From: an uncultured bacterium
GTDB taxonomy: Bacteria; Oederibacteriota; JAAXVQ01; JAUVAV01
Length of the DNA: 64,000 nt
Assembly: GCA_964630235.1 (NCBI GenBank)
Contig: CAZVUO010000001.1
Span: 917,446-981,445, forward strand
Direction: 5' to 3'
In this document: positions 2,352-58,560 of the stretch, one piece after another
Layout: each line of letters opens with the position of its first letter
Position numbering within the stretch: the stretch's first letter is position 1
Notes under the pieces: generated by a model
What the model saw: the letters and a program-made list of their open reading frames with translations, nothing else
Told to the model about the DNA's origin: nothing
The model's database searches: none
Program-made: the position numbers and the translations under genes

Positions 2352-3317
2352 GTGAAATTTACCTTCGTCATTGGTCATGCATTGTTGCTCGGCCTTTCCC
2401 TTGTTACCGGCTGCGGCCGCCCGGGCCGCCTGGAGACCAACGCCGATCCCACCAGCCTGGTCCTGGACGCGGGTTCGCGCACGCTCTTCGTGGCTTGCGA
2501 GGGCAGCCGGACCGTCGAGGCCTGGGACGTGTCACGGCGCACCAAGACCGCCGAGGCCGAGGCCGGCCGGGGACCCCTGCGTCTGGTCCTGGACCAGACC
2601 GGCAGCCAGCTTTACGTCCTGTGCGGCGGCGACCGCCTGGTGCTGGCCCTGCGCGTGCCGGATCTGAAGCCCCTCAAGCGGCTGCGCCTGTCCGACGCGC
2701 CCTCCGCGCTGTGGGAAGATGTTGCCGCAGGCGCGATGTGGGTGGCCTGCGCGGATTCGAACTTCCTGCGCCCCTATGCCGGGAGCAACCCCCTGCCGGC
2801 CATCGAGACCGGTCAGGAACCCGTGGACCTGGCGCGCGCCGGGGACAAGGACCTGCTGTGGGTGGCCAACCGCCAGGGTGGGGATGTGGCCGTGGTCAAG
2901 CTCAGCGAAGGCCAAGTGGTCAAGCACGTCGGGGTGTGGCCCAACCCGGTGCGCTTGCTGCTGCCGTCCGAGAGCAACCGTCTGCTCGTGCTGTGCCAGG
3001 GCCAGGACGCCCAGCCGCCGCAAAGCCGGGTGCAGATCGTGGACACGCTGTACCAGTCCGTCGGCCTGTCCTGGCCCGCGGGCGTGGATGCCCGCGATTT
3101 CGCTCTCAGCCCGGACGAACAGCGGCTGTACGTGCTCACGGCCGAGCGCTTGCTGGTGCTGTCGAGCGATATCGGCGTCCAGCTGGCCAGCCTTAAAGTG
3201 GGCAAGGAACCCCGGGCCCTGGCCCTCTCCTCGGACGAATCCACAGCTTTCATTTCCTGTCAAGACCAGCATGAGATATTGCTGGTCAAGCTCACCCCGG
3301 GCAAGTGGCTTCGGTAA
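2352..3317 (+). CDS. Lipoprotein with YVTN/YncE-like beta-propeller repeats
   Basis: Signal peptide plus lipobox (LSLVTGC). Repeated LYVL / LWVAN / LLVLCQG / LYVLTAE blades. Confidence 0.6.
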   Translation: MKFTFVIGHALLLGLSLVTGCGRPGRLETNADPTSLVLDAGSRTLFVACEGSRTVEAWDVSRRTKTAEAEAGRGPLRLVLDQTGSQLYVLCGGDRLVLALRVPDLKPLKRLRLSDAPSALWEDVAAGAMWVACADSNFLRPYAGSNPLPAIETGQEPVDLARAGDKDLLWVANRQGGDVAVVKLSEGQVVKHVGVWPNPVRLLLPSESNRLLVLCQGQDAQPPQSRVQIVDTLYQSVGLSWPAGVDARDFALSPDEQRLYVLTAERLLVLSSDIGVQLASLKVGKEPRALALSSDESTAFISCQDQHEILLVKLTPGKWLR

Positions 3318-15863: not shown

Positions 15864-16774
15864 GGCACCACCCGGACCTCGGGCTCCAGCCGGACCTGGT
15901 GCCGGTCCCACACGCTCCGGCTGATCACCTCCATCAGCGCCAGCACGTCGGCCGTGGTGCCCGTGCCCGTGTTGACGATGAAATTGGCGTGGCGCTCATA
16001 GACTTTCACGCCGCCGACCTGCCGGCCTTTCAAGCCGCAGGACTCGATCAACGAGCCGGCCGAACGGTTGGAAGCGTAGTCGTTCTTGAACACGCAGCCG
16101 GCCGAGGGCAGGAGGAACTGGCCCTTCTGTTCGCGGTCCTGCCGGTTCGCCGCGCCCTGGGCGCGGATGCGTTCCGGGTCCCCGGGCGAGAGCAGGAGCG
16201 AAGCGCGCACGATGATCCACGGCCGGGTCTGGAAGACCGAGGCCTTGTATCCGAATCCGCAGTCCGCGGGCTTGAGCGTGCGCAGTTCGCCTTGGTCGGT
16301 CAGCACTTCCACCTCGGCGATGATGTCCGCGAAGGACGCGCCGTAACAGCGGGCGTTCATGTAAACGCCACCGCCCACGCTGCCCGGCAGGCCGTTGGCC
16401 CATTCGAACCCGGTCCACCCGTGCGCTTCGGTCCAGGCGGTCACTTCCTCGTTGGCCACGCCTGCCGCAACGCTGACCCAGTTGCCTGGCACCGGGCCTA
16501 GGGACTTCAGGTTCTTGGTGGACAGCACCAGCCCCGGAAAGCCATCGTCCCGGAACAACACGTTCGAGCCGCCGCCGAGCAGGAACCAGGGCAGCCGGTG
16601 CTGCCGGCATACGGCCAGGGCCGCGGCCAGGGCCTGGACGGTAAAGGGCGCGGCGAAATACCGGGCCGGCCCGCCCAGCCGGAACGTGCACTCCTGGGAC
16701 AGGGAGTGGTCGGTCAAGACCGGGGACTGAGCGGCTTGGGAGAGCTCTTTAAATATGGATTCCTGATTCGCCAT
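15860..16774 (-). CDS. murB: UDP-N-acetylenolpyruvoylglucosamine reductase MurB
   Basis: FAD-binding N-terminal domain (LGGGSNVL) and a MurB C-terminal domain. ATG start (MANQESIF) with a GAGG RBS. Confidence 0.9.
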   Translation of the reverse strand: MANQESIFKELSQAAQSPVLTDHSLSQECTFRLGGPARYFAAPFTVQALAAALAVCRQHRLPWFLLGGGSNVLFRDDGFPGLVLSTKNLKSLGPVPGNWVSVAAGVANEEVTAWTEAHGWTGFEWANGLPGSVGGGVYMNARCYGASFADIIAEVEVLTDQGELRTLKPADCGFGYKASVFQTRPWIIVRASLLLSPGDPERIRAQGAANRQDREQKGQFLLPSAGCVFKNDYASNRSAGSLIESCGLKGRQVGGVKVYERHANFIVNTGTGTTADVLALMEVISRSVWDRHQVRLEPEVRVVP

Positions 16775-16874
16775 GCCTGACCTCGAGGACAAACCTTGCC
16801 ATCGAGGGTATCATCGCACACCTGTATGAGGATTCAAAGCGGAAAACGGTTTAAAAGCAAGCTTAAAAGTGCCA

Positions 16875-16903
16875 TTGACATTTGTGGACAAAAGGATCAA
16901 AAT
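16875..16903 (+). promoter_or_regulatory. Putative sigma-70 promoter for the regulator/Ehr-like operon (TTGACA-N17-CAAAAT)
   Basis: Perfect -35 about 50 nt upstream of the regulator ATG, in the divergent region with murB. Confidence 0.35.
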
Positions 16904-16953
16904 GACCATCTTTTAGACAGGCGGAGAAAAATGTCAGTAGCCAAGAGGATTCC

Positions 16954-17655
16954 ATGGAATTATCCGTCAGGGAAGTCGCCAAACTCCTGAAAGTATCCGA
17001 AAAGACGGTCTACCGGTGGATTGCGGAAAAAAAATTGCCGGCCTTCCGCATCCACGACCAGTACCGGTTCAACCGGGTGGAATTGCTGGAGTGGGCCACG
17101 ACCCGCCGCTTGAACGTTTCCCCGGAAATCTTCGCCGAACCTTCCTCTGAAGCGCCCTTGCCCAGCCTGGCCGAGGCCCTGCAGGCCGGCGGCGTTTATT
17201 ACCGCATCGCCGGCCAAACCCGCGATGAAGTCCTGGCCGCCGTGGTCGAGCACATGCGCCTGCCTGATGCGGTGGACCGGAAGTTCCTGCTGCAAGTGCT
17301 GCAGGCGCGCGAGGAACTGGGCTCCACGGCCATCGGCGAGGGCATCGCCATTCCGCACGTCCGCAATCCCGTGGTCCTGCACGTGGGGCAGCCGACCATC
17401 ACCCTCAGTTTCCTGGAAACGCCGGTGCCGTTCGGCGCGCTGGACGGCCAGCCCGTGCGGGCCCTGTTCACGCTGATCAGTCCCACGGTCCGCGCCCACC
17501 TGCACATGCTGTCGCGCTTGGGGTTCGCGCTGCGCGACCCGGAGCTCAAGCGGCTGGTGCGGGAGCAAAGCCTGCGCGAGAAAATCTTCTCCGCCGTGTC
17601 GGCCGTGGAACAGGCGTTGACCGAGGCCGAATCCAGGGAGGGAAGCGGTTCATGA
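16954..17655 (+). CDS. Transcriptional regulator: N-terminal excisionase/MerR-like HTH fused to a PTS EIIA(Ntr)/fructose-type domain
   Basis: AKLLKVSEKTVYRWI helix-turn-helix. C-terminal GSTAIGEGIAIPH signature with the phosphorylatable His. Stop overlaps the start of the next gene (ATGA). Confidence 0.75.
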   Translation: MELSVREVAKLLKVSEKTVYRWIAEKKLPAFRIHDQYRFNRVELLEWATTRRLNVSPEIFAEPSSEAPLPSLAEALQAGGVYYRIAGQTRDEVLAAVVEHMRLPDAVDRKFLLQVLQAREELGSTAIGEGIAIPHVRNPVVLHVGQPTITLSFLETPVPFGALDGQPVRALFTLISPTVRAHLHMLSRLGFALRDPELKRLVREQSLREKIFSAVSAVEQALTEAESREGSGS

Positions 17656-19634
17656 TCGCCGCCGGATTCGCCTTATCCCTGGGATTGCTGCTCGCGGGCG
17701 GGCTTCTGGCCTGGATGTGTTCCGGCCGTCCGGCCCTGGCCGCCATCCTGGGCAGCGCCAGCGCTTGCGCGGCCGGCGGGATCGGCTTGGCCGCGTCGCT
17801 GGCGGCCCTGCATCCGGGGAACGCCTTCAGCCTCAACTGGCCGTGGGTCATGCCCAACGCATCCTTGTCCCTGGGCGTGGATCCCCTGGCGGCGTTTTTC
17901 CTGGCAGCGCTATTCGCGGTTTCCGGCTGTGCGGCGCTCTTTGGCTGGGGGTATTTGCGGCAGGACCACGAACCAGCCCGGCAGGGCGGCCACTGGTTTT
18001 TCTTCAACCTGCTGGTGGCGAGCATGGCCGTGGTCCTGCTGGCGCGCAACGCCCTGCTGTTCCTCGTGGCCTGGGAAGTCATGACCGTGTCTTCGTATTT
18101 CTTGGTGGTGCACGATCACGAGGAAGAACGCGTCCGCAGGGCGGGATGGATTTACCTGACCGCGTCCCATATCGGCGTGCTGTTCCTTTTGGGCTTTTTC
18201 GCGCTGGCCGGCCAGCAGGCCGGCGGTTTCGAATTTTCCCGCCTCCAGAGCGCGCTCCCGGATTCCGCCGGTTGGCTGTTTTTACTCGCCTTGGCCGGCT
18301 TCGGGTTGAAGGCGGGATTCGTGCCCCTGCACGTGTGGCTGCCCGAGGCGCATCCGGCCGCGCCGAGCCACGTATCGGCGCTCCTGTCGGGCGTGATGAT
18401 CAAGCTCGGCATCTACGGCCTGTTCCGGGTCCTGACTTTTTTTGCCGAGCCGGCCGCATGGTGGGGAGGGCTCATGGTCGGCATCGGCCTGCTTTCCGGC
18501 GTTTGCGGGGTGGCTTTCGCCCTGGCGCAGCACGACCTCAAACGCCTGCTGGCCTACCACAGCGTGGAGAACATCGGCATTATCGCGCTGGGCCTGGGCC
18601 TGGCCCTGATCGGGCGCAGGCTGAACCTACCCGCGCTGGCCGCGCTCGGGGCCTTGGGCGCGCTGCTGCACGTTTGGAACCATGCATTGTTCAAAGCCCT
18701 GCTCTTTCTCGGCGCGGGCGCCGTGGTGCGTCAGACCGGACTGCGCAGCGTGGATGCCGCGGGCGGCCTGTTGAAACGCATGCCCGCCACCGGCGCGGCG
18801 TTTTTTGTGGGCGCGGCTGCCATCTGCGGCTTGCCGCCGTTCAACGGCCTGGTGAGCGAATGGCTGATCTATACGGCCGGATTCACGGGCCTGACGCAGG
18901 CGCCGGCAGCCTGGGCGCCTGCGGCCATCGCCACGGTGGCCGGCTTGGCCGCGATTGGCGGCCTGGCGCTCGCCTGCTTCGCCAAGGTTTTCGGCGCGGT
19001 CTTTCTCGGCGAACCGCGCACACCGGAGGCCGCGGCCGCCACTGAAGCCCATTGGACCCTGCTCGCGCCCATGCTCGCGCTGGCCGCCATCTGCCTGGCC
19101 ATCGGTCTGGCCGGGCCTTGGCTGTGCCTGGCTCTGAGGCCGGCCGTCTTGTCCATCCTGGGCGTCGAGGCCGCCCTCGGCGCCGGGGCCGTGGCTGTGG
19201 CCGCCGGCTGGATGCTGCGCCTGACCGGGGTCATGCTGATCCTGCTGGCCGCGACCGCGCTGATCATCTGGCTGCGGAACCGCAGACTGCGGAAGCCCGT
19301 TGCTTCCGGGCCGACGTGGGATTGCGGCTTCGCGGACCCTTCGCCCCGCATGCAGTATACGGCCGCGTCCTTCAGCCAGCCCCTGACCCGCTCCCTGGGA
19401 CTCTTGCTCAGGCCGCAAACGCAAGCCCAGCTTCCAGCCGGGCTGTTTCCCGGCCCGGCCCATTGGCGCTCCCATGTGTCCGACTTGTTCCAGCGGCTTC
19501 TGCTGGAGCCGTTGTTCCGCGGCGCGGCGGCCGGGTTGTCGTGGCTGCGCTGGCTGCAGCACGGCCGGATCCAGCTCTACGTCCTCTACATCGCCGCGGC
19601 GCTGATTCTGCTCGCCCTCTGGGGGTGGCTGTGA
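17652..19634 (+). CDS. Antiporter-like membrane subunit (NuoL/MrpA/HyfB family) of an energy-converting hydrogenase-related (Ehr-like) complex
   Basis: 660 aa, many TM helices, WLPEAHPAAPSHVSALLSGVMIKLG motif typical of the NuoL/HyfB family. Confidence 0.8.
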   Translation: MIAAGFALSLGLLLAGGLLAWMCSGRPALAAILGSASACAAGGIGLAASLAALHPGNAFSLNWPWVMPNASLSLGVDPLAAFFLAALFAVSGCAALFGWGYLRQDHEPARQGGHWFFFNLLVASMAVVLLARNALLFLVAWEVMTVSSYFLVVHDHEEERVRRAGWIYLTASHIGVLFLLGFFALAGQQAGGFEFSRLQSALPDSAGWLFLLALAGFGLKAGFVPLHVWLPEAHPAAPSHVSALLSGVMIKLGIYGLFRVLTFFAEPAAWWGGLMVGIGLLSGVCGVAFALAQHDLKRLLAYHSVENIGIIALGLGLALIGRRLNLPALAALGALGALLHVWNHALFKALLFLGAGAVVRQTGLRSVDAAGGLLKRMPATGAAFFVGAAAICGLPPFNGLVSEWLIYTAGFTGLTQAPAAWAPAAIATVAGLAAIGGLALACFAKVFGAVFLGEPRTPEAAAATEAHWTLLAPMLALAAICLAIGLAGPWLCLALRPAVLSILGVEAALGAGAVAVAAGWMLRLTGVMLILLAATALIIWLRNRRLRKPVASGPTWDCGFADPSPRMQYTAASFSQPLTRSLGLLLRPQTQAQLPAGLFPGPAHWRSHVSDLFQRLLLEPLFRGAAAGLSWLRWLQHGRIQLYVLYIAAALILLALWGWL

Positions 19635-20533
19635 TGGACCTCGCGAGCCTTCTGCTTTGGCTGGCCGCGCTGCTGCTCTCGCCACTGTGGCTGGGCCTGA
19701 TCGAGCGCGTCAAAGCGTTCTTCGCCGGCCGCCGGGGGGCGCCCCTGCTGCAGGTTTATTATGACCTGGCAAAACTCTGGGGCAAGCAGGCGGTGTACAG
19801 CCGCACGGCCACCTGGGTTTTGCGTTCCGCGCCGGCCTGGAGCCTGGCCGCGATCCTGGCAGCCACCCTGTTCGTTCCGTGGGGCGGCTGGCCGGCCCTG
19901 GCGGTTTTTCCCGGAGACATGATCGTCTTGTTCTACCTGCTGGCCCTGGCCCGCTTTGGGCTGGTGCTGGGCGCCCTGGACACGGGGTCCGCGTTCGCGG
20001 GCATGGGCGCCAGCCGCGAAGTCTGGCTCTCCGCCCTGGCCGAGCCCGTGCTGTTCCTGGGGCTGGCGGTGCTGGCGCTCCAGCACAGGCAGTGGAGCCT
20101 GACCGCGTTGCTGGGAGGCCCGGCCGGCTGGCCGGACCTCGCGGTGTGGCTGGTGGCCCTGGCGTGGGCCGTGGTGCTGGTCGTGGAAAACGCGCGCCTG
20201 CCGGTGGATGATCCGAACACGCATCTGGAACTGACCATGATCCATGAGGCCATGATTTTGGACCATAGCGGGCCGGACCTGGCGCTGGTCACGGCCGGGA
20301 GCGCCGTGAAATTTTCCATCTTCTCCGCGCTCTTGGCCGGGTTGTTCGTGCCCCAGGGGCTGGAGCCGGGCTGGCTCAAGCTCGCGGCCGCAGGGGCCGG
20401 CATGGCGGTGGCCGCCGTGGCCGTGGGGGTGACCGAGTCGGTTTTGGCCCGCTGGCGTCTGGTCAGCCTGCCGCGCCTGCTCGCGGGCGCAGCCGCTCTG
20501 GCCGTGATCGCCCTGTTGTGGGTGATGCGATGA
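19634..20533 (+). CDS. NuoH/HycD/HyfC-like membrane subunit of the Ehr-like complex
   Basis: About 299 aa polytopic protein, with HycD-like length and pattern. TGATG overlap with the upstream gene. Confidence 0.7.
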   Translation: MDLASLLLWLAALLLSPLWLGLIERVKAFFAGRRGAPLLQVYYDLAKLWGKQAVYSRTATWVLRSAPAWSLAAILAATLFVPWGGWPALAVFPGDMIVLFYLLALARFGLVLGALDTGSAFAGMGASREVWLSALAEPVLFLGLAVLALQHRQWSLTALLGGPAGWPDLAVWLVALAWAVVLVVENARLPVDDPNTHLELTMIHEAMILDHSGPDLALVTAGSAVKFSIFSALLAGLFVPQGLEPGWLKLAAAGAGMAVAAVAVGVTESVLARWRLVSLPRLLAGAAALAVIALLWVMR

Positions 20534-21219
20534 ACCTGCAACCGGATTTCATGAACGTCCTGTCGGTTTTGCTGATCCTGTGCACCCTCGCGCTGTTCGG
20601 CGCCAGCCGCCTGTCCTATTGCATCCGGGTGGCCGCGGTCCAGGGGTTTGTGCTGGGCCTGCTGCCGGTTTTCACCAGCGCGGCCGGTATGCACCCCTCG
20701 GCCTGGGTCATGTCCGGATTGGCGATAGCCCTCAAGGCGTTCGTCTTTCCCTGGCTGCTGCTGCGGGCCTTGCGCCAGGCGAATATCCGGCATGAGATCG
20801 AACCCAGCGTGGGATTCAGCTGGTCGATCTGGATCGGCATCCTGCTGCTCGCGGTCTGCGTGCTGGCCGGCCGGGGCATGGCTTCCTGGCCAGGCGCGCC
20901 CGAGGGCCTGCAGTTGCCGGCCTCCTTCTTTATGGTGCTGGCCGGATTTTTTCTGATCGCGGCCCGGCGCCAGGCCCTGACCCAGGCGGTCGGCTACCTG
21001 GTCCTCGAGAACGGCGTGTTTGTCTTCGGCAGCCTGCTGGTGCCCGAAGCGCCGCGCCTGCTGGAGTTGGCGGTGCTCCTCGACCTGTTGGCCGCGGTCT
21101 TCATCATGGGCATCGCCATCTTTCACATTCACCGGGAATTCGACCACATTGACACCAACCGGCTGAACTTTTTGCGCGATTGGCACCGGAAAGAACCCCT
21201 GCGGGAGCCGCGGCCATGA
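20530..21219 (+). CDS. HyfE-like small membrane subunit of the Ehr-like complex
   Basis: 229 aa, about 6 TM helices. ATGA overlaps on both sides. Confidence 0.6.
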   Translation: MNLQPDFMNVLSVLLILCTLALFGASRLSYCIRVAAVQGFVLGLLPVFTSAAGMHPSAWVMSGLAIALKAFVFPWLLLRALRQANIRHEIEPSVGFSWSIWIGILLLAVCVLAGRGMASWPGAPEGLQLPASFFMVLAGFFLIAARRQALTQAVGYLVLENGVFVFGSLLVPEAPRLLELAVLLDLLAAVFIMGIAIFHIHREFDHIDTNRLNFLRDWHRKEPLREPRP

Positions 21220-22655
21220 TCCTCGTCCTCGCGCTTTTGCCTCCCCTGGCCGGCGCGGCGGCCCTGCTGCTGCGCGGCCCCCGCCTGATCCGGGGCTGGC
21301 TGGTGACGGCCGCGCTCGGGCACTTTCTGCTGACCGTGGCCGCGCTGGCCGGCGCGCCAGCGCCTGCCTGGCACGGCTGGCTGGAACTGGACGCGGCCGG
21401 CAAGATTTTTTTAGGCACCACCAGCCTGTTGTTCCTGGTGGTCAGCGTGTATACGCTCGATTTCCTCCGGAGAGAAAAGCGGACGGACGCCGAGGACCGG
21501 CCCTACCCGGAGTCGGTGTTCGTGGCCTGCCTCCTGTTTTTCCTCGGCGCCATTACCTGGGTGATCCTGAGCCAGCACCTGGTCCTGCTGTGGGCGGCGG
21601 TCGAAGCCACCACGCTCTCTTCCGCGCCGCTCATTTATTTCCATCGCAACGACCGTTCCCTGGAAGCCACCTGGAAATACCTGCTCCTGTGTTCGGTCGG
21701 AATCGCCCTGGCCCTGCTCGGCACGTATTTTCTGGCCATGGCCGCGGGCGGCAGCGGCGCGGGGCTCACGCTGCGGGAACTGGCCCAGCCCGGCCAGGCC
21801 CTGCGCACGCCCTGGCTGAAAGGCGCGTGGATTTTGCTGCTGGTGGGATACGGCACCAAGATGGGCCTGGCGCCCATGCATTCCTGGCTGCCGGACGCGC
21901 ACAGCGAAGCTCCCTCGCCGGTTTCGGCCCTGCTCTCCGGCGCGCTGCTCAACGGTGCGTTCCTCGGCATCGCGCGCGTGCTCTCCGTGTGCGCGGCCTC
22001 CGGGCAGGGCGACTTTGCCCGGCAGACGCTGATCGCCCTGGGCTTGTTTTCCATGCTGGTGGCCGCGGTGTTTATCCTGGGCCAGACGGACTTCAAACGC
22101 ATGCTGGCGTTCTCTTCGGTGGAGCACATGGGCGTCCTGGCGCTCGGCTTGGGCATCGGCGGGGCGGGCGTTTACGCCTCGCTGCTGCACGCGGTCAATC
22201 ACTCCCTGGCCAAGGCCATGCTGTTTCTGCTGGCCGGCAACCTGCTGGCCGCCTTCGCGACCAAAACCATCACCGCGGTGCGGGGAGCGGGCCGCCTGCT
22301 GCCTGTCACCGGGGCCCTGTGGCTGGCAGGCTTCTTCGCCATCTCCGGCATCCCACCCTTCGGATTGTTCTGGAGCGAATGGCTGATGCTCAGGGCGGCG
22401 CTGTGGAGCGGGGCGTGGCTGGCGGGCGTGCTCTATCTGCTGTTCTTGCTGGTGGTGGTGATCGGCATGGCCTCCATCGTGGTGCGCATGGTGCAAGGCG
22501 AACTGCCGCCCGAACGGAAGCCGCTGATCGAGCGCAGCCTGGCTGTCCTTCCGCCTGCCGTACTTGCGCTCTGCGCGCTGCTGCTCGGCCTGTACCTGCC
22601 CGCGTTCCTGCGTTCGGCGCTGGAACAGGCCGCGGCCTTGTTGGGAGGCGGTTAG
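21216..22655 (+). CDS. NuoN/NuoM/HyfF-like antiporter subunit of the Ehr-like complex
   Basis: 479 aa. GTKMGLAPMHSWLPDAHSEAPSPVSALLSGALL motif. Confidence 0.75.
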   Translation: MILVLALLPPLAGAAALLLRGPRLIRGWLVTAALGHFLLTVAALAGAPAPAWHGWLELDAAGKIFLGTTSLLFLVVSVYTLDFLRREKRTDAEDRPYPESVFVACLLFFLGAITWVILSQHLVLLWAAVEATTLSSAPLIYFHRNDRSLEATWKYLLLCSVGIALALLGTYFLAMAAGGSGAGLTLRELAQPGQALRTPWLKGAWILLLVGYGTKMGLAPMHSWLPDAHSEAPSPVSALLSGALLNGAFLGIARVLSVCAASGQGDFARQTLIALGLFSMLVAAVFILGQTDFKRMLAFSSVEHMGVLALGLGIGGAGVYASLLHAVNHSLAKAMLFLLAGNLLAAFATKTITAVRGAGRLLPVTGALWLAGFFAISGIPPFGLFWSEWLMLRAALWSGAWLAGVLYLLFLLVVVIGMASIVVRMVQGELPPERKPLIERSLAVLPPAVLALCALLLGLYLPAFLRSALEQAAALLGGG

Positions 22656-24116
22656 ATGACTCCCGGGGTCCGCACCCGCAATCAGGAGGCCGTGAGCCTG
22701 AACGAGATTCCCAACCTGGACGCCGGGGCGTTTCGCGCCGCGGTGCTGGCAGCCGTGTCCAGGGGGAGCCGCTTGTCCGCCTGGTTCGCGGGGCCTGCCA
22801 TTGGGGCCGCGCGCAGGCTGTACGCGATCTTGGCCGATGACCACAGCGGCACGCTAACCTGGCTGAGCACCGGGATGGAAGATGAATGGCCAAGCCTCAC
22901 GCCGGACTGTCCCCAGGCGCACGCGTTTGAGCGGGAACTGGCGGAAGACGCGGGGCTGCATCCACAGGGGCATCCCTGGCGCAAGCCCCTCAGGCGCCTC
23001 CGCGACCACGGGGAATTCTTCCGCGTCCTCGGCGAGGAAATTCACGAGGTCGCCGTGGGGCCGGTGCACGCGGGCGTGATCGAACCCGGCCATTTCCGCT
23101 TCCAGTGCGCTGGCGAAAAAGTATTGCACCTGGAAATCGCCCTTGGATACCAGCACCGCGGCGTGGAGCAGGCGCTGCCCCAGGCCGCGCCCAGGTCGGC
23201 CATGGCCATCATCGAAACCGCGGCCGGCGATACCAGCATCGGGCATGCCCTGGCCCATGTCGGCGCGCTCGAAGCACTGTCCGCGGCCCACGTGCCGCCG
23301 CGCGGCCTGGCCGTGCGCGCCCTGGCCCTGGAACTGGAGCGCCTGGCCAACCATGCGGGCGACCTGGGCGCCCTGGCCCAGGACGTGGGCTATCTGCCCA
23401 CCGCGTCCCACTGCGGCCGCCTGCGCGGAGACCTGCTGAACCTCACGGCCGAGCTCTGCGGCAGCCGCTTCGGCCGCGGCCTGGTCCAACCCGGCGGCGC
23501 GGCTTTTGACCTGGAGCCGGAACGGGCGGCCCGCCTGGAAAACAAGCTGGTTGCCATTCTCGCGGAACTGCATTTGGCCCTGGACCTGACGTGGAACTCG
23601 CCCTCCGTGCTGGCGCGCTGGGAGCAAACCGGCCGGCTCCCGCGCAAAACCGCGCTGGACCTGGGCGTGGTGGGACCGGCGGCCCGGGCCTGCGGATTGG
23701 CTCGCGACGTCAGGCAGGATTTCGCCTCGGGCATGTACGCGCTGGCGCATATCCCCATCGCCCTGGCGCACGGCGGGGACGTTTTTTCCCGGGCCCTGGT
23801 ACGCTGGATCGAAATTCAGCGCTCGGCTGCGTTCGTGCTGGAACAGCTGGGGTCCCTGCCCGCGGGCCCGGTCCGGGACGGAATGCCGGACCTCAAGCCC
23901 CGGCTGGCCGCGGCCGCGCTGGTCGAAGGCTGGCGAGGCGAGATCTGCCACGTGGCCATGACCGGCGACGACGGCCGGCTGGCCGCGTATAAGATCGTGG
24001 ACCCGTCGTTCCACAATTGGCAGGCGTTGGCCCAGGTCATGCGCAACGGGGAGATCAGCGATTTTCCGCTGTGCAATAAAAGCTTCAACCTGTCCTACTG
24101 TGGACATGATCTATAG
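22656..24116 (+). CDS. NuoC-NuoD/HycE-like large subunit lacking all NiFe-ligating cysteines (Ehr large subunit)
   Basis: NuoC-like N-terminal part (AFERELAEDAGLHPQGHPWRKPLRR). The core GPVHAGVIEPGHFRF...LGYQHRGVEQ is hydrogenase-like. Position L1 reads ETAAGDTSIGH where a hydrogenase has ERICGICSxxH. Position L2 reads IVDPSFHNW where a hydrogenase has DPCxxCxxR. The C-terminal tail is NuoD-like (SYCGHDL). Confidence 0.8.
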   Translation: MTPGVRTRNQEAVSLNEIPNLDAGAFRAAVLAAVSRGSRLSAWFAGPAIGAARRLYAILADDHSGTLTWLSTGMEDEWPSLTPDCPQAHAFERELAEDAGLHPQGHPWRKPLRRLRDHGEFFRVLGEEIHEVAVGPVHAGVIEPGHFRFQCAGEKVLHLEIALGYQHRGVEQALPQAAPRSAMAIIETAAGDTSIGHALAHVGALEALSAAHVPPRGLAVRALALELERLANHAGDLGALAQDVGYLPTASHCGRLRGDLLNLTAELCGSRFGRGLVQPGGAAFDLEPERAARLENKLVAILAELHLALDLTWNSPSVLARWEQTGRLPRKTALDLGVVGPAARACGLARDVRQDFASGMYALAHIPIALAHGGDVFSRALVRWIEIQRSAAFVLEQLGSLPAGPVRDGMPDLKPRLAAAALVEGWRGEICHVAMTGDDGRLAAYKIVDPSFHNWQALAQVMRNGEISDFPLCNKSFNLSYCGHDL

Positions 24117-24231
24117 GCCTGCGTTTCCAGCTTCCTGATCCTTGCCGTAAACCCGGCAGACAGGGTCCGGAAGCTTCCCCCTGCGGCCCAAGAGGGGCAA
24201 GGGGAGTGGGGCACCAAACAGGAGTCACCGT

Positions 24232-24981
24232 ATGCTGAAAGCCTTGCTGGCCCGGCTGAAGACCGGATGCCGAACCCAACCTTTTCCACCCGGGTCCGCG
24301 GCGGTTTCCGACCGCTTCCGAGGCAGGCCCGAGCTATGCGCGGGCACCGGACCCGCGGACCCCGGCGCCTGCCCGACTGCCGCGTTCAGCCGGCAGGACG
24401 GGGGCTTGAACCTGGACCTGGGCCGCTGTTTGTTCTGCGGGTCCTGCCCATTTAGCCAGCCTGCGGGTCCGCTGGCGTTCAGCCGGGATTACCGGCTGGC
24501 TGCTTCCACGCGCGGAGACTTGAACCTGCGGCTCGGCGCCGAGTTCCATCCCGCCCGGCCGCTGGGCGAGAACCTGCGCCGTTTGCTGGGCCGCGCCTTG
24601 CGCCTGCGCCAGGTCAGCGCCGGCGGCTGCAACGCCTGCGAAGCCGACGCCAATGTGCTGACCACGGTCGGGTTCGACTTGGGGCGTTTCGGCATCCAAT
24701 TCGTGGCTTCGCCCAGGCACGCGGACGGGCTGCTGGTCACCGGGCCGGTCACGCTCAACATGCGGCTGGCCCTGGAAAAGACCTATGCCGCGGTGCCGGA
24801 GCCCAAGCTGGTCATCGCCTCCGGCGCGTGCGCCATTTCCGGCGGGCCGTATGCGGGGCAGAAGCAGGTCCTGAACGGCGTGGACCGGCTCCTGCCCGTG
24901 GACCTGTACGTGCCCGGCTGTCCGCCGCATCCCTTGACCCTGTTGGACGGCCTGTTGCGCCTGCTGGGCAGGATCCGCTGA
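24232..24981 (+). CDS. NuoB/HycG-like small subunit with an N-terminal ferredoxin-like (HycF-remnant) extension
   Basis: GGCNACE...ASGACAISGG...VPGCPP cluster-N2-type motifs. The N-terminal 60 aa carry CP(TAAF) and CLFCGSCP, enough for one additional [4Fe-4S] cluster. AGGAG RBS. Confidence 0.8.
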   Translation: MLKALLARLKTGCRTQPFPPGSAAVSDRFRGRPELCAGTGPADPGACPTAAFSRQDGGLNLDLGRCLFCGSCPFSQPAGPLAFSRDYRLAASTRGDLNLRLGAEFHPARPLGENLRRLLGRALRLRQVSAGGCNACEADANVLTTVGFDLGRFGIQFVASPRHADGLLVTGPVTLNMRLALEKTYAAVPEPKLVIASGACAISGGPYAGQKQVLNGVDRLLPVDLYVPGCPPHPLTLLDGLLRLLGRIR

Positions 24982-25074
24982 TCCGGCCAGCCGGAGCAGG
25001 CGCAGGGCGATTTTTAGCTTGACTTTGGCGGCCTGGGAGCCTATGCTGGCTGCCAGTCAACCACTTTTTCAGTA

Positions 25075-25110
25075 AGAGTGGGAGCAGGTCTGCCCACTCT
25101 TTTTATTTTT
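25075..25110 (+). terminator. Rho-independent terminator after the Ehr-like operon
   Basis: AGAGTGGG-agcaggtctg-CCCACTCT hairpin (8-bp stem) followed by TTTTTATTTTT. Confidence 0.65.
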
Positions 25111-25191
25111 CGGGACAGGCCGGAACGCACCCGAAAAGCCTTTTAAAATAAGCGGAAAAGTGGCGAGGCGAACCTCAAAGAGGGGCGAAAC

Positions 25192-26709
25192 ATGAGTTTG
25201 CAATTGATCGAGATCATGCGGCAGATCGAGCGGTCGCGCAAGGTGGACCGGCAGGTGGTGATCCAGGCCATTGAAGCGGCCTTGATCTCCGCTTCCCGTA
25301 AAAACCACGGTACAGCCCAGGACATCCGGGTGGCCTTCAATTCCGACACCGGTGAGCTCCTGGCGTTTTTAAAGAAGCTGGTCGTGGAGGAGGTTCACGA
25401 ACCCTGGAACGAAATCGCCCTGGAAGAGGCGCGGCGGATCAAACCGGACGCCCAACTGGGCGAAATGGTGGAAATGGGCATGATGCCCTCCGAGTTCGGC
25501 CGGATCGCGGCCCAGACCGCCAAGCAGGTCATGCTGCAGCGGGTGAGGGAGTCGGAACGCAACGCCATTTTCGAGGAATTCAAGCAGCGTCAAGGCGAAC
25601 TGCTCAACGGCGTGGTTCTGCGCGAGGAAAACCGCAACCTGATCGTGGACCTGGGCGATACGGAAGCGCTTCTGCCGGGCCGGGAACAGGTGCCGCGGGA
25701 ATTCTACAAGGCCGGCGACCGGATCAAGGTTTTTATCCTGGATGTCCGCCGCACCAGCCGGTCGCCCCAGGTCGTGGTGTCGCGCTCCCACCCGGGCCTG
25801 ATCCGCAAACTATTCGAGATGGAAGTGCCGGAAGTGGCGGACGGCGTGGTGGAGATTCGCGCCGTGTCCCGCGAAGCCGGCGCCCGCTCCAAGGTGGCCG
25901 TGGTCTCCAAGGACAAGAATGTGGACCCGGTCGGCGCCTGCGTGGGCATCAAGGGGTCCCGCATCCAGTCCATTGTCCGCGAACTGCATGGCGAAAAAAT
26001 AGACGTGATCCCCTTTGCCGAGAACGTGGAGACCCTGCTGACCTCGGCGCTGCAGCCGGCCAAGATCGCGCAGGTGGTCCTGGCGGCGGAGAACAAGCAG
26101 GCCACGGTGATCGTACAGGACGACCAGCTCGCGCTGGCCATCGGCAAGAACGGCCAGAACGTGCGCCTGGCGTCCAAACTCCTCGGCTGGAAGGTGGACA
26201 TTGTCCCGCTCTCCAAAAACCAGGAGGAGATGCGCCGCCGCGCCGAGGAAGCGTTCCTCAAAACCGCGCCGGCCCTGGACAAAATACCCGGCATTACCGC
26301 CAATCTGGCTAAAAAGCTGCAAGAGGCCGGGTACGACAGTGTGGCCAAGTTCCTGGGCAAGACCGCGGACCAGCTGACCGAGATCCAGGGTATCGGGCCC
26401 AAAACCGCCGAGAAGATCATGGAGAGCCTTAATCCCTATCTGCCCCATCCGGCCGAAAGCCGTCCGGCCGAACGCACGGCCGCCGAGCTGTTCGCCAACC
26501 TGGGCGGGCACGAGGCCGCTGCTCCCAAACCCAAAGAAATGGCGGCCGGCGACCTGTTTGCTAATTTCGACCAGGCCGCGGCCGCGACCGAGCCGCCAAC
26601 CGAAACCCCGGCCGAGGTGCAAACCGAAGCGCCGGCCGAGACGCGGGAGCGCGCGCCCCGTAAAAGCCGATCTGACGCCCCTGCAGGGGAAGGGGGTGAG
26701 GCCGTATGA
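25192..26709 (+). CDS. nusA: Transcription termination/antitermination factor NusA
   Basis: N-terminus [15 protein letters not shown]...; S1 and KH domains ([14 protein letters not shown]). AAAGAGGGG RBS. Confidence 0.92.
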
Positions 26710-36456: not shown

Positions 36457-38178
36457 TTATTTCCGCTTGAACAGCTTGCGCAGTTCGGTAACGGACCGTG
36501 TGTTGAGCACGTCCGCCGGCTCCAGCCACCCGCGCCGCGCCTGATTGATCCCGTAGCGCAGGGTGCGCAGGCCGACCGGGCTGTGCGCGTCCGAGGAAAC
36601 AGCCACCCGCACGCCTGCTTCCTTGGCCTGGCGGCAGGCCGTGTCCGTGGCGTCCAGACGCTCGGGATGGGAGTTGAGCTCGAGAAAACAGCCGCGTTCC
36701 TTCGCGCCGGCGATCACGCGTTCCAGCTCCAGCGGGTAGGGGGGGCGGGAGTTCAGCAGGCGGCCGGTGGGGTGGCCGAGAATGCTGAAATAGGGATTGT
36801 CCATGGCGCGCAGAATGCGCTCGGTTTGCTTGCCCGCGGGCAGGTTAAATTTGTAGTGGATGGACCCCACGGCGTAATCCAGGCGCGCCAGCACCTCATC
36901 CGGCATATCCAGCCGGCCGTCCTCCAAAATGTCGGCTTCCAGTCCTTTTAGCAGCGTGAAATTCTTAAGCCGCGCGTTGGCCGCGTCAATGGCGTCGAGC
37001 TGTTTGAGCAGGCGTTTGGCGTCCAGGCCGTGGGCCACGGTCACATGCTGGGAATGGTCGGTAATGCCCAGGTACGCATAACCGAGGGCGCGGGCGGCCT
37101 CGGCCATTTCCAGCAGGCCGGCTGTGCCGTCCGATTCCTCGGTATGGCAGTGGAGGTCTCCGCGCAGGTCCGGCAGGCTTACCAGGCGCGGCAGGAGCCC
37201 CTGGGCCGCCCGCTCCAGTTCGTCCCCCGCTTCCCGCAGTTCGGGCTCGATGTAAGCCAGGCCGAGGCGGCGGTAGATTTCCTCCTCGGTTTTGCCTGCC
37301 ACGGACCGTGTTCCCTTGAACAGCCCATACTCATTGAGTTTGTAGCGCTTTTTTTGCGCCAGCTTGCGCACCGCGATGTTATGCGCCTGAGAGCCGGTGA
37401 AATAGTGCAGGGCCGCGCCGAAACTCTCCTGCGGCACGGCGCGCACGTCCACCTGCAGGTCCGAGCGCAAAACGACCGTGGCGCGGGTCGGACCCAAGGC
37501 CTGCACGCGCGCGATGTCCGGGTAGCGGCTGAAAAATTCCAGGGTCTTGTCAGGCAGGCGGCTGGCGACCAGGATATCCACATCGCCGATGGTTTCCTTG
37601 CGGCGGCGGAAGCTGCCGGCCGCGGCCGTGGACTCCACGCCCGGGGCGGCCCGCAAATAGACCAGGAGCGCTTCCACGGCCGGCTCGGCGCTGGCCCACA
37701 GCGTGCGCTCGGGATTGGCCATGCGGTGCGCGGCGCCGGACAGGATCTGCTCCTCCAGCTTGGGGCCGAAGCCGGGGAGCGCCCGCACCTTGCCGGCTTG
37801 GGCCGCGCGTTTAAGGTCGTCCAGCGTTCGCGGACGCAGGCTCGCGGCCAGCTGTCTGACCCGCTTGGGTCCCAGCCCCGGCAGTTTCAGCATCGCGAGC
37901 TGCACAGGCGGGATCTTGGCCTCCAGCTCCGAAAGCATTGTCAGCGCACCGGTGGCCAGGAGTTCCTGGATCTTTTCGGCCAGGTCCGGGCCGATGCCCG
38001 GCAGACCGGTCAGGCCGTTCTTGCGGGCGGCGAGTTCGGACAGGCTGCGGGGCAGGTTGGCAATGGTTTGGGCCGCAGTATGATACGCGCGGATGCGGAA
38101 GGGATTGGCGCCTTCCAGCTCCAGCAATACGGCCACCCGCTCGAAGCGTTCCGCGATTTCCTGGTTTGTGAGGGGCAT
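36457..38178 (-). CDS. polX: DNA polymerase X family protein with a C-terminal PHP (3'-5' exonuclease/phosphoesterase) domain
   Basis: HhH motifs (GLPGIGPDLAEKI) and a Pol beta-like nucleotidyltransferase (GSFRRRKETIGDVDIL). PHP with HCHTEESDG. Confidence 0.88.
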   Translation of the reverse strand: MPLTNQEIAERFERVAVLLELEGANPFRIRAYHTAAQTIANLPRSLSELAARKNGLTGLPGIGPDLAEKIQELLATGALTMLSELEAKIPPVQLAMLKLPGLGPKRVRQLAASLRPRTLDDLKRAAQAGKVRALPGFGPKLEEQILSGAAHRMANPERTLWASAEPAVEALLVYLRAAPGVESTAAAGSFRRRKETIGDVDILVASRLPDKTLEFFSRYPDIARVQALGPTRATVVLRSDLQVDVRAVPQESFGAALHYFTGSQAHNIAVRKLAQKKRYKLNEYGLFKGTRSVAGKTEEEIYRRLGLAYIEPELREAGDELERAAQGLLPRLVSLPDLRGDLHCHTEESDGTAGLLEMAEAARALGYAYLGITDHSQHVTVAHGLDAKRLLKQLDAIDAANARLKNFTLLKGLEADILEDGRLDMPDEVLARLDYAVGSIHYKFNLPAGKQTERILRAMDNPYFSILGHPTGRLLNSRPPYPLELERVIAGAKERGCFLELNSHPERLDATDTACRQAKEAGVRVAVSSDAHSPVGLRTLRYGINQARRGWLEPADVLNTRSVTELRKLFKRK

Positions 38179-38304
38179 GGGTACTTATAATAAACCACCT
38201 CAAACCACGTTGCACGGAAAAATCAAAAGGGTCGCGGCGCTTTCTGCCTGATCACCCGTTCGTTGAGCGATTGCCGAGCCTGTCGAGGCAGTCGAAACGA
38301 ACGT

Positions 38305-38435
38305 CCCCTCCCCTCCGCAGGGCACCCCGAGCTTGCTCGGGGGTGAATGCGGAATCGTTGCTCCGGGGATGTCGCCAAGCAGGGGTAGCGAGGATTGAAG
38401 TGGGTACCCCGGGCCCTTCGGCCGGGGGGCTCCCT
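38305..38435 (+). repeat. F-family repeat, copy 3 (upstream of rtcB)
   Basis: Same core GGGTGAATGCGGAATCGTTGCTCCGGGGATGTCGCCAAG, ending GGGGGGCTCCC. Confidence 0.7.
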
Positions 38436-38506
38436 CGACAGGCTCGGGGACCTAGAAAGATGTTTCCCGCATTGAACCTCTGCGGTCTTGGCGTTATACT
38501 CCTGCC

Positions 38507-39964
38507 ATGAAGACTTCCGCCGAACCCCCGAAACTCGAACCCCTTGCCCCAAACCTGTGGCGCATTCCCCGGGACCAGCATCCCGGCATGCGCGTGGACG
38601 GCCTGGTCTTCGCTTCTTCCGAACTGCTTCAAGACGTGTTCCGTGACCAGGCGCTCAGCCAGGTCATCAACGTGGCCCATTTGCCCGGCATCGTCAACGC
38701 TTCCTTGGCCATGCCGGACATCCACTGGGGATACGGTTTTCCCATCGGCGGCGTGGCGGCCTTTGACGCGGAGACCGGCGTGGTCTCGCCCGGCGGGGTG
38801 GGATATGACATCAACTGCGGCGTGCGCCTGCTCGCCTCCTCGCTGGAGCAGGATGAAGTGGCGCCCAAGGTAAAGGACCTGCTCGCCGTCCTTTACCGGA
38901 ACGTGCCGGCTGGCGTGGGCAGCGAAGGCCGGATCACGCTCAAGCCCGCGGAGCTCAAGCGCGTGCTGGAGCTGGGGTCGCGCTGGGCGGTCCAGCAGGG
39001 CTACGGCTGGCAGGAGGACCTCGCGCGCACGGAAAACGAGGGGCGCCTGGCGGCGGACAGCGAGCTGCTCAGCGCCAGGGCCAGGGAACGCGGCCTGGGA
39101 CAGCTGGGCACGCTCGGGTCAGGCAACCATTTTTTGGAAGTCCAGGCTGTGGACGAGATCTTCGACCAGGCAGGGGCCGAAGCCTACGGCTTGCGCACGG
39201 GGCAGGTGACGGTCATGATCCACTGCGGTTCGCGCGGCCTTGGGTATCAGGTGTGCGAGGATTTCCTGGCGGTCCTGCGGCGCGCCACGCGCACGTATGG
39301 TTTCGATTTACCTGACCCCCAGCTGGCCTGCGCGCCGGTCAGCTCGCCAGAGGGGCGGGAATATTTGGCGGCCATGGCCGCGGCCGCGAATTACGCCTGG
39401 GCCAACCGCCAGTGCATCACCCACTGGGTGCGGGAGGCTTTTCAGGAAGTGCTGGGGAAGCCGGCCGAACGGTTGGGCCTGCACCTGGTGTACGACGTGG
39501 CGCACAACATCGCCAAACTGGAAACGCACCGCGTGAAGGGAAAAGAACGGCTCGTGTGCGTGCACCGCAAGGGCGCGACCCGCGCGTTTCCGGCCGGGCA
39601 TCCCGAGGTGACCGCGCGCTACCGCCGGGTCGGCCAGCCGGTGCTCATTCCCGGCAGCATGGGCACGGCTTCTTACGTCTGCGCGGGCGCGGCCGGAGCC
39701 ATGGAACAGAGCTTCGGCTCCACGGCGCACGGCGCGGGCCGCGTGCTCTCGCGCCACGCGGCCATCCGGCAGGCCCAGGGCCGCTCCATCGGACAGGAGC
39801 TGGCTGCCCAGGGCATCCAGGTCATGGCCCGGGGCCGGGAGACTTTGGCCGAAGAGGCGCCGGCCGCGTACAAGGACATTGACGAGGTGGTGGCGACCGT
39901 GGATGAGGTTGGGCTGTCTAAAAAAGTCGCCCGGTTGAGGCCGTTGGGGGTCGTAAAAGGCTGA
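38507..39964 (+). CDS. rtcB: RNA-splicing ligase RtcB
   Basis: IHWGYGFPIGGV, YDINCGVR and GSGNHF motifs. Confidence 0.92.
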   Translation: MKTSAEPPKLEPLAPNLWRIPRDQHPGMRVDGLVFASSELLQDVFRDQALSQVINVAHLPGIVNASLAMPDIHWGYGFPIGGVAAFDAETGVVSPGGVGYDINCGVRLLASSLEQDEVAPKVKDLLAVLYRNVPAGVGSEGRITLKPAELKRVLELGSRWAVQQGYGWQEDLARTENEGRLAADSELLSARARERGLGQLGTLGSGNHFLEVQAVDEIFDQAGAEAYGLRTGQVTVMIHCGSRGLGYQVCEDFLAVLRRATRTYGFDLPDPQLACAPVSSPEGREYLAAMAAAANYAWANRQCITHWVREAFQEVLGKPAERLGLHLVYDVAHNIAKLETHRVKGKERLVCVHRKGATRAFPAGHPEVTARYRRVGQPVLIPGSMGTASYVCAGAAGAMEQSFGSTAHGAGRVLSRHAAIRQAQGRSIGQELAAQGIQVMARGRETLAEEAPAAYKDIDEVVATVDEVGLSKKVARLRPLGVVKG

Positions 39965-39983
39965 ATGTACCCCTGTCCCCACA

Positions 39984-40019
39984 CCCCTCTTTGCTAAAGA
40001 GGGGCAGGGGGAGATTACT
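39984..40019 (+). repeat. Hairpin repeat module (CCCCTCTTTgctaAAGAGGGGCAGGGGGAGATTACT)
   Basis: Perfect 9-bp stem. The same module is found at 59878-59913 (reverse) and, diverged, at 40053-40088, 59806-59840 and inside R copies B and D. Confidence 0.6.
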
Positions 40020-40121
40020 TATCATCCGTCCAGTCGGCAGTTGAGGTTTATGAGTAATCCCCCTTCGCCCCCTTTAGAAAAGGGGGCAGTCAACAGCAAG
40101 TGGGGAATAAAAGGTATACAC

Positions 40122-40535
40122 ATGATTCCTTTTGAGATCCTAGAGCATACGGCGGACGTGGGGCTTAGGGTCCAGGGCCGGACGCTGGAGGAACTGTTCG
40201 AGAACGCGGCCCAGGGCCTGTACGCGCTGGCCTTGGCGGCGCCTCCGGCCGGGGCGGTGACCGAGAAGGTCACTCTGCACCTGGCCGCTGACGGCCCGGA
40301 ATCCCTGCTGGTCGCGTTCCTGGAGGAACTGGTATTCCGCCTCTACAGCCGGTGCCAGATGGCGATCAGCGCGCGCCTGTCCTTTCCCACGCCCAATCGC
40401 TTGAGTGCCGAGGCGGCGTTCGTTCCCGTCGCGGCCGAATCCTATGCGGTGGAAGTGAAAAGCCCCACGTACCACCGGCTGAAGATCGAGCAGGGGCCTG
40501 AAGCCTGGCTCGCGGAGGTCTATTTTGACCTGTGA
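40122..40535 (+). CDS. Archease (RtcB activator)
   Basis: MIPFEILEHTADVGLRV N-terminus. Confidence 0.85.
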   Translation: MIPFEILEHTADVGLRVQGRTLEELFENAAQGLYALALAAPPAGAVTEKVTLHLAADGPESLLVAFLEELVFRLYSRCQMAISARLSFPTPNRLSAEAAFVPVAAESYAVEVKSPTYHRLKIEQGPEAWLAEVYFDL

Positions 40536-57607: not shown

Positions 57608-57650
57608 CCCTCGCCTGAGCCCAGTCTGAGCCAAATATTTCGGTGGCCCC

Positions 57651-58337: not shown

Positions 58338-58439
58338 CTCAAACCACAGGTTCCAGGCGCGGAGGGGCCAACCGCCCGCGCCGAGGACTTGTGGTTTTTT
58401 TATAGGATGATTGAGTCTTCCTTTAGCCCTGCAACGCCG

Positions 58440-58558: not shown

Positions 58559-58560
58559 CA

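Follow-up and report, generated by a model that had tools for sequence, protein, structure and literature searches.

A 64,000-nucleotide stretch of DNA from an uncultured bacterium assigned to Oederibacteriota (contig CAZVUO010000001.1, positions 917,446 to 981,445 of the forward strand; hereafter the window) carries, on its plus strand at 16954-17655, an open reading frame (ORF) that is open throughout and encodes a 233-residue protein, here called R, in which a helix-turn-helix (HTH) is fused to a phosphotransferase system (PTS) enzyme IIA (EIIA) domain resembling PtsN, or EIIA(Ntr). Gene order and promoter sequences compared across bacteria make it highly probable that R is a DNA-binding regulator of the operon that follows it, ehrABCDLS, whose products form an Ech-hydrogenase-related (Ehr) complex, and we regard as reasonably probable the whole chain in which R, an autoregulatory repressor, acts on this operon under the control of phosphorylation at its EIIA domain.

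In the proposed scheme, R would be the operon-specific, autoregulated transcription factor of the module R-ehrABCDLS, its excisionase/BldC-type winged HTH binding GGACA/TGTCC half-sites one helical turn apart. The bound sites would overlap the core sigma-70 promoter, over the -35 element and spacer in the window and over the -10/+1 region or the spacer in most relatives, and bound R would most likely block RNA polymerase and repress transcription. HPr or NPr in its phosphorylated form, fed by enzyme I (EI) and phosphoenolpyruvate, would phosphorylate His135 of R; this would alter the oligomerisation, DNA affinity or cooperative binding of R, and Ehr synthesis would track the state of the regulatory PTS. 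Binding of the repeat by R, repression rather than activation, phosphorylation of His135 and the physiological signal are the parts of this scheme that we infer.

Domain architecture and genomic setting of R

The HTH-EIIA fusion, with the phosphorylatable His of its GIAIPH motif, had been recognized in a preliminary description made from the letters of this DNA, and it stands. Pfam places HTH_17 (PF12728, 60.6 bits against a cutoff of 27) at residues 3-51 (nucleotides 16960-17106, plus strand) and PTS_EIIA_2 (PF00359, 77.7 bits against 27) at residues 82-215 (17197-17598, plus strand), with a conserved linker, VSPEIF..EP, in between. Both matches exceed the curated thresholds, as does that of the NCBIfam model 'excise' (TIGR01764, 51.6 against 28.8). 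An AlphaFold2 model built on 119 homologues (predicted local distance difference test score 87.6, predicted template modelling score 0.73) shows a winged HTH followed by the linker and then an EIIA fold. Its top Foldseek matches in the PDB are the PtsN structures 3URR and 1A6J, the latter, from E. coli, being also the closest solved relative by sequence (E = 3e-14). The preliminary description had called the HTH excisionase- or MerR-type, and only the first half of that label holds: by profile score and model, the HTH of R is of the excisionase/BldC (HTH_17) type and not MerR proper, with PF00376 reaching 19.9 bits against a threshold of 28.2, an EIIA fold after the winged HTH where the long coiled coil is absent, and promoter spacers of 17 bp against the 19-20 bp of MerR targets.

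Several other identities were considered for R and rejected. R is not a PtsN orthologue, as it scores 58.7 against 138.7 for TIGR01419 and 56 against 221 for NF008145 and is a 233-residue fusion set between murB and nusA at the head of ehr, whereas PtsN has about 150-165 residues and an rpoN-hpf-ptsN setting; the annotation "PTS sugar transporter subunit IIA" that R-type proteins carry is misleading. The NCBIfam model of the FruA IIA domain also matches, far under its equivalog cutoff. A PTS regulation domain (PRD)-type regulator such as MtlR or LicR would need more than HTH_17 and PTS_EIIA_2, the only domains present in R, for which 233 residues are too few. The idea of a mobile-element excisionase or recombination directionality factor meets no integrase, housekeeping neighbours (dnaE, murB, nusA, infB) and a setting conserved across phyla. 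Finally, the match to the anti-phage MADS protein MAD1 (55 bits against a cutoff of 80) concerns the HTH part only, the PADLOC mad1 match covers residues 1-47 only, and defence genes are absent nearby.

Proteins built like R are widespread. More than 6000 share its two domains and length in a word-indexed search, cluster representatives at 50% identity yielded 390 clusters at E <= 1e-30 when searched exhaustively, and when genomes were scanned at one per species, relatives turned up in at least 594 species. An R gene also lies within 3014098-3034790 of the complete genome of the isolate Fontivita pretiosa B-254 (NZ_CP191258.1). The best matches, 62-70% identical, come from Lentisphaeria, Planctomycetota, Thermodesulfobacteriota, Tepidisphaeraceae and others, and the nearest named relative (78% identical) belongs to candidate division FCPU426 (GCA_040756875.1). 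Eighty genome loci were scored by tblastn with the seven proteins of the window; these, like a second set of 80 from metagenomes, are the best 80 matches of a larger pool. R lies immediately 5' of the Ehr cluster in 74 of the 76 testable genome loci, and the order R-A-B-C-D-L-S is kept on one strand in about 72 of the 80. The loci come from more than 15 phyla. Four of the apparent exceptions to synteny are contig ends, and the others are the duplications at L004 and L039 and the SulP locus L024 described below. Synteny of such regulators with Ehr-like clusters in other genomes, which the preliminary description had named as a check on its reading, is thus found in nearly all testable loci and in many phyla.

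This observation was further strengthened by two differently seeded searches. Among the metagenome loci, gathered with divergent members of the family (R 43-65% identical to that of the window), 47 have enough downstream DNA, and there ehrA follows R directly in 42, after one extra paralogue in 4, and is replaced by a SulP-family gene in 1 (L110). When the search started from EhrL instead of R, four loci were looked up in other phyla; all three informative ones (Elusimicrobiota, Gemmatimonadota and one further contig in which R is frameshifted) carry R right before ehrA, and the fourth contig ends too early to judge. Across the fetched loci no neighbour besides these seven genes is conserved past phylum level, which defines R and ehrABCDLS as a seven-gene module. 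In the window the TGA of R (17653-17655) overlaps the ATG (17652-17654) of a 660-residue HyfB-like ORF, as had been described. The same 4-bp overlap of the R stop and the ehrA start occurs in 33 of 74 loci and a gap of at most 31 bp in 64 of 74, with ehrA start codons outside the window chosen heuristically. R is apparently co-transcribed with ehrA and coupled to its translation.

The module also varies between lineages. One Fibrobacteria locus (L004, 4204-12687) carries two divergently transcribed R-ehr operons, both with the 4-bp overlap, and in another bacterium (L039, 9035-14796) a tandem pair of R paralogues precedes a pair of EhrA paralogues, from which lineage-specific duplications of the module appear to be common. 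In about 10-12 Verrucomicrobiota loci a C4 zinc-ribbon gene follows ehr and a gene for a Rex redox-sensing repressor (Put_DNA-bind_N and CoA_binding) lies nearby (L029 18633-19265, minus strand; L021 13020-13418, plus strand), a synteny that may be limited to the phylum. The Elusimicrobiota locus has an ArsR-type HTH gene whose sequence overlaps the R start. One 836-residue family representative (P0359), to whose first 171 residues R residues 1-170 align, may be an R-EhrA fusion, natural or artefactual.

A promoter repeat that accompanies R

The 130 bp 5' of R in the 80 genome loci contain a recurrent pattern, cTTGACAtTtgtgggCa-N12-ATGTCCAAAGATGTCCAAAg. Its strict core, TGTCY-N5-TGTCY, occurs in 42 of the 80 upstream regions as against 0.28% of 150-bp background windows, and these 42 are the larger part of all 53 strict matches in 1.39 Mb searched on both strands, where about 11 would be expected by chance from the degeneracy of the pattern. 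Allowing at least 9 of 10 matches to TGTCC-N5-TGTCC in either orientation raises the count to 62 of 80, against at most 1.3% of background windows in a tiling that includes the true sites. The strict repeat mostly begins at -49 from the ATG, 28 bp past the start of TTGACA, so that its first T closes the -10 hexamer and the whole extends over about -7 to +8. In several Binatia, delta-proteobacterial and NC10-type loci (e.g. L026 and L069) it sits inside the -35/-10 spacer instead, and in Fibrobacteria, Tepidisphaeraceae and the window it lies over the -35 element in the opposite orientation.

Two further comparisons connect the repeat to R itself. The first concerns two loci where a SulP-family transporter (Sulfate_transp and STAS) follows R in place of Ehr, one in a Fibrobacteres metagenome-assembled genome (L024, 6272-8673) and one on a low-GC metagenome contig (L110, 8001-10466); the repeat is present 5' of R in both and so travels with R rather than with Ehr. 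These loci suggest a regulon of R centred on ion or anion transport. The second comparison uses the metagenome set, which was gathered by an EIIA-domain pattern and so carries no bias for the HTH. Of 35 loci with SEK[TS]xYRW as the recognition helix of R, 26 have the repeat, compared with 4 of 41 with other helices (Fisher p = 6e-9, related genomes being counted as independent), and the helices of these four exceptions are one residue off SEK[TS]xYRW. Motif and helix would be expected to co-vary in this way if R reads the repeat. Related HTH_17 proteins bind direct repeats one turn apart, and the TGTCC-N5-TGTCC of R would fit that mode.

One subclade stands apart, with the helix D[ED]ATVRRWI and the wing ERL[HY]LNA (L146, L152, L156 and L159 among L094-L173), in which R is 43-48% identical to that of the window. 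Ehr still follows R there, and upstream coding sequence often reaches the start of R; this subclade probably has another operator, and its operon may begin upstream of R.

In the window, the TTGACA promoter that had been proposed at 16875 proved to be the best sigma-70-like site in 16600-25300, matching the consensus at 10 of 12 positions. This predicted promoter (16875-16903, plus strand) has its -35 hexamer, TTGACA, at 16875-16880, a 17-bp spacer and a -10 hexamer, CAAAAT, at 16898-16903. The candidate operator, TGTCC-acaaa-TGTCA on the minus strand (16876-16890), matches TGTCC-N5-TGTCC at 9 of 10 positions; read on the plus strand, it consists of TGACA (16876-16880) and GGACA (16886-16890) and covers the -35 hexamer and spacer. 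An inverted partner half-site, AAATGTCAgtagc with the core AAATGTCA (16929-16936), lies in the predicted 5' leader at 16929-16941 on the plus strand and pairs with 16871-16883 as an inverted repeat with 13-nt arms that are 85% complementary; AAATGTCAGT is kept in the relative whose R is 92% identical and is absent from the FCPU426 relative. A degenerate downstream half-site pair (TGACC...AGACA) occupies 16903-16919 on the plus strand, where most relatives have ATGTCCAAAGATGTCC, the FCPU426 relative AATGTCCgggtTTGAGA and the window AATGACCatcttTTAGACA; right after the -10 hexamer, the FCPU426 relative reads AATGTCC and the window AATGACC. The block ATTGACATTTnnGGACAAAAG is invariant among the window and the relatives with R 92% and 78% identical, while the surrounding intergenic DNA has diverged. 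The preliminary description had advised looking for palindromic operators near this promoter. A conserved candidate operator does lie on it, although its architecture, in the window as in the family, consists of direct repeats phased at 10 bp together with inverted partners and is no simple palindrome.

A leader RNA or riboswitch was considered as an explanation of this conservation and rejected: the window leader has no Rfam match and its 5' untranslated region folds no better than shuffled sequences (z = +0.97), the one Rfam match, at L029, being a spurious microRNA-like hairpin. Direct repeats and conservation at the level of sequence point to protein-DNA recognition rather than to a leader RNA. 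In the 92% relative (L088, about 2870-3000), an insertion of about 130 bp with inverted ends, CCCCTGCGCAGG...CCTGCTCAGGGG, separates the conserved promoter block from the start of R; it is absent from the window and the FCPU426 relative and may be a small mobile or hairpin element.

The direction of control is suggested by the promoters themselves. Near-consensus promoters with 17-bp spacers should need no activator, and with sites lying over the core elements, occupancy by R should occlude RNA polymerase. The converse possibility is that R is an activator, a MerR-like promoter remodeller or a class II activator switched on by phosphorylation. HTH_17 does belong to the MerR-like superfamily, the repeats of L026 and L069 occupy the -35/-10 spacer that is the classic MerR position, and BldC both activates and represses (PMC5859096, PMC6428758). 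We nevertheless judge activation very unlikely, as the spacers are 17 bp, shorter than the 19-20 bp of MerR targets, the -35 hexamers match the consensus (exact TTGACA in 48 of the 80 orthologous upstream regions), most repeats cover -7 to about +8 where RNA polymerase would be occluded, and R falls under the PF00376 threshold and has no MerR coiled coil.

The EIIA domain and its possible phosphate donors

The EIIA domain of R retains the residues of the PtsN phosphorylation site. GEGIAIPH135 aligns with GNGIAIPH73 of E. coli PtsN (1A6J), which places the His135 codon at 17356-17358 on the plus strand; Arg119 aligns with Arg57 of PtsN, and His182, in an HLH motif, probably matches PtsN His120. 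Of 116 representatives of the R family, 36-59% identical to R of the window, 108 retain His135, 107 Arg119 and 113 His182 (93-97%), and Pro134 is invariant. This retention across the family argues that the domain may still be phosphorylated.

The search for donors was less productive. Pfam annotation of about 45 ORFs in the 64-kb window found only housekeeping and signalling genes and no PTS genes, and tblastn with E. coli HPr, NPr, EI, PtsP, RapZ, RpoN and Hpf found nothing there; the same queries against 83 loci returned only one HPr gene and extra R paralogues. That gene, of the HPr family (PF00381, E = 4e-19), lies immediately 5' of R in a Planctomycetia locus (L006), and its product has the active-site region GLHVLAA, without the usual Arg after the His. 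In about five loci a gene for a sigma-54-dependent NtrC-type response regulator adjoins R (e.g. L006 4212-6082, L024 3846-5234, L093 683-2035), and in L006 it lies upstream of R together with the HPr-family gene; such a neighbour could possibly form a second regulatory layer. The nitrogen-related system, PTS(Ntr), is described in proteobacteria, Chlamydiales, Spirochaetales and Planctomycetales (2026 review, PMC13104625).

A different origin of the signal has to be weighed here, namely that R autoregulates ehr as proposed while its EIIA-like domain serves as a dimerisation module or as a ligand- or protein-sensing module that does not respond to PTS phosphorylation. SLC4 anion exchangers use a homologous EIIA-like fold in this way in their cytoplasmic domains, and other Foldseek matches of R, among them AE2, band 3 and the NDCBE regulatory domain, share the fold without a PTS role. 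The lack of PTS donor genes in the window, the members without His135 and the scores of R well under the PtsN equivalog thresholds point the same way. Conservation of His135, Arg119 and His182 at 93-97% in very divergent members is, however, hard to explain without catalytic use, and an HPr gene does abut R in L006; we consider a non-PTS sensor rather unlikely.

Several observations weigh against the proposed scheme as a whole. With regard to DNA recognition, the promoter in the window is a consensus match only, its operator is partly degenerate and weaker than the family consensus, with just the 9/10 repeat over the -35 element and one inverted half-site left, the motif is absent in 18 of the 80 genome loci and never occurs in the D[ED]ATVRRWI subclade, and the motif and motif-helix statistics are uncorrected for shared ancestry. 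With regard to the signal, His135 is lost in 8 of the 116 representatives, genes for EI, HPr, NPr and HprK are absent from the window, an HPr gene adjoins R in just 1 of about 165 R loci, and PtsN acts through protein-protein contacts, so the EIIA domain of R could have a non-transcriptional partner. Taking both sides together, we place control of R by PTS phosphorylation at slightly better than even, on the strength of its conserved site.

The Ehr complex, related systems and implications

The gene order around R, with coordinates from gene calls on identical public contigs, is dnaE, a GNAT gene and murB (the last two on the minus strand), then R, ehrABCDLS, nusA, infB and rbfA. The ehr genes lie on the plus strand. 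ehrA (17652-19634), whose start overlaps the R stop in ATGA, encodes a HyfB/NuoL/MrpA-like antiporter-type membrane subunit; ehrB (19634-20533) a NuoH/HyfC-like membrane subunit (PF00146); ehrC (20530-21219) a HyfE-like membrane subunit (NF008556, hydrogenase 4 membrane subunit, E = 8.8e-25); and ehrD (21216-22655) a HyfF/NuoN-like antiporter-type subunit (PF00361 and HyfF models). ehrL (22656-24116) encodes a subunit like NuoC/D and the hydrogenase large subunit (PF00346) without the NiFe-binding CxxC motifs, as these are defined in PMC4378227: AGDTSIGHALAH stands at the site of the hydrogenase RxCGxCxxxH motif, and inspection of the C terminus found no DPCxxC or DPCxxCxxH motif. ehrS (24232-24981) joins an N-terminal ferredoxin-like (HyfH/NuoI-like) segment to a NuoB-like small subunit (PF01058); its matches to NuoI/HyfH models are weak, and the cluster cysteines are kept in CNAC, GACA and GCPP. 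By these subunit assignments the six genes after R are the Ehr set ehrABCDLS, and the earlier label 'Ehr-like' was fair.

The proximity of R to this complex also admits the reading that R has the Ehr complex itself as its main target, where the EIIA(Ntr) domain would dock on the antiporter-like subunits and gate ion translocation or assembly, with DNA binding a secondary function or a parking state; in a mixed form, the complex could possibly sequester R and so derepress the operon. Besides the tight, apparently translational coupling to ehrA that most loci show, the conservation of R is unusual for a transcription factor, the best matches across phyla being 62-70% identical against 55-62% for EhrL; only these independent R and EhrL searches were relied on, as ranking R the most conserved gene of the operon from R-picked loci would be biased. 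Ion transport also recurs around R, which precedes SulP in two loci and in two other, unrelated loci has a gene for a YidE/YbjL-type transporter (Asp-Al_Ex with TrkA_C) just 5' of it (L090 2118-4196, L039 7217-8887). PtsN acts on TrkA and KdpD. Unphosphorylated PtsN, moreover, binds the K+/H+ antiporter YcgO directly and inhibits it (PMC11808508). Against docking as the main role, the promoter repeat and its co-variation with the helix indicate that the HTH is under selection for specific recognition of its own promoter, and proteomics in G. sulfurreducens lists only Ehr subunits (PMC7894505), from a cluster that may or may not include an R gene. Docking as the main role appears quite unlikely.

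The two activities could also be combined in a bifunctional switch, in which one phospho-form of R would dock on the antiporter-like Ehr subunits, gating ions and at the same time leaving the GGACA repeats. PtsN acting on YcgO and Trk offers an analogy for the gating and PtsG acting on Mlc one for the removal of a repressor; we rate the switch as distinctly unlikely. If it were true, the regulatory PTS, present far beyond proteobacteria, would set both the amount and the activity of Ehr, a widespread respiratory-type ion pump, and SulP anion transporters would be controlled likewise in a few lineages.

A few other features of the window were recorded. At 24091-24106, TGTCCtactgTGGACA forms an inverted operator half-site pair in the last codons of ehrL, about 125 bp 5' of ehrS; it encodes the EhrL C terminus ...LSYCGH, so that constraint on the protein sequence, and not a second operator, may explain it. 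Two neighbouring GAF-GGDEF diguanylate cyclase genes (52881-55750) overlap as called (52881-54302 and 54188-55750), the true start of the second being probably further downstream. A 752-residue ORF on the minus strand (57528-59786; G+C content at third codon positions 0.66) is the longest of its stretch, has no Pfam match and overlaps plus-strand ORFs at 57651-58337 and 58698-59756, so that either strand may be the coding one. At 36457-40535, a gene for a PolX-type DNA polymerase with a PHP domain (minus strand) adjoins an RtcB RNA ligase-archease pair, a repair cluster unrelated to R.

Among known systems, the Firmicutes PRD activators MtlR, LicR and ManR combine DNA-binding and PTS_EIIA_2-type domains, and PTS phosphorylation tunes their transcriptional output; they are about 650-700 residues long, have HTHs of the Mga type, a pair of PRDs and an EIIB-like domain, and serve sugar catabolic operons. 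R likewise carries a DNA-binding and a PTS_EIIA_2-type domain on one polypeptide, but with 233 residues, no PRD or EIIB domain, an excisionase-type HTH and a respiratory-type membrane complex as its putative target. Mlc, a ROK-family repressor linked to the PTS through PtsG, has its activity set by binding to this membrane protein and contains no PTS domain. Its sequence is unrelated to R, and Mlc-PtsG is a precedent for the possible sequestration of R by the Ehr complex.

PtsN, the best sequence and fold match to residues of about 72-220 of R, shares with it the GxGIAIPH motif, the Arg57 equivalent and the His of HLH, and both are regulatory rather than transport proteins. PtsN, however, is a stand-alone protein of the rpoN cluster that is described as acting only by protein-protein contacts, in a review where DNA-binding fusions go unmentioned (PMC13104625), whereas R has an N-terminal DNA-binding domain and heads the operon that it apparently controls. 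On the DNA-binding side, R shares the family PF12728/TIGR01764 with BldC, lambda Xis and phage 186 Apl. Head-to-tail binding to direct repeats one helical turn apart is described for BldC (PMC5859096) and for Apl and other recombination directionality factors (PMC7498355). BldC, Xis and Apl are single domains of 55-70 residues with no sensor, while R adds an EIIA domain of 150 residues and its sites have inverted partners.

Where PMC6688271 and PMC7894505 cite Coppi 2005, Ehr is an Ech-hydrogenase-related complex encoded by ehrABCDLS, and the six genes of the window match the published complex in subunit set and in a large subunit without NiFe ligands. Descriptions of Ehr give six or seven structural genes and a function that is unknown (PMC4378227, PMC10284858, PMC6349859, PMC7894505). 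The literature searched ties no HTH-EIIA gene to Ehr, the founding papers (Coppi 2005, Marreiros 2013) lying outside that scope, and a search with both Pfam names together gave no result. Within the same scope, the earlier statement that the circuit was not an established one agrees with what was found, and the accompanying claim that R regulates the Ehr operon is well supported by comparative evidence. Transcription factors with PTS domains are already known from the PRD type (MtlR/LicR), and it is the link of R to Ehr that appears new.

Ehr complexes are relatives of complex I and hydrogenases in many phyla, and a dedicated regulator, encoded beside them almost universally and with a recognisable operator and input domain, would make the question of when and why they are produced experimentally tractable. 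If the proposed scheme is true, an EIIA(Ntr) domain would be wired straight to DNA binding in place of protein-protein contacts, which would extend PTS(Ntr)-type signalling, and this circuit would be present in Verrucomicrobiota, Planctomycetota, Fibrobacterota, Elusimicrobiota, Gemmatimonadota, Binatia, NC10 and others.

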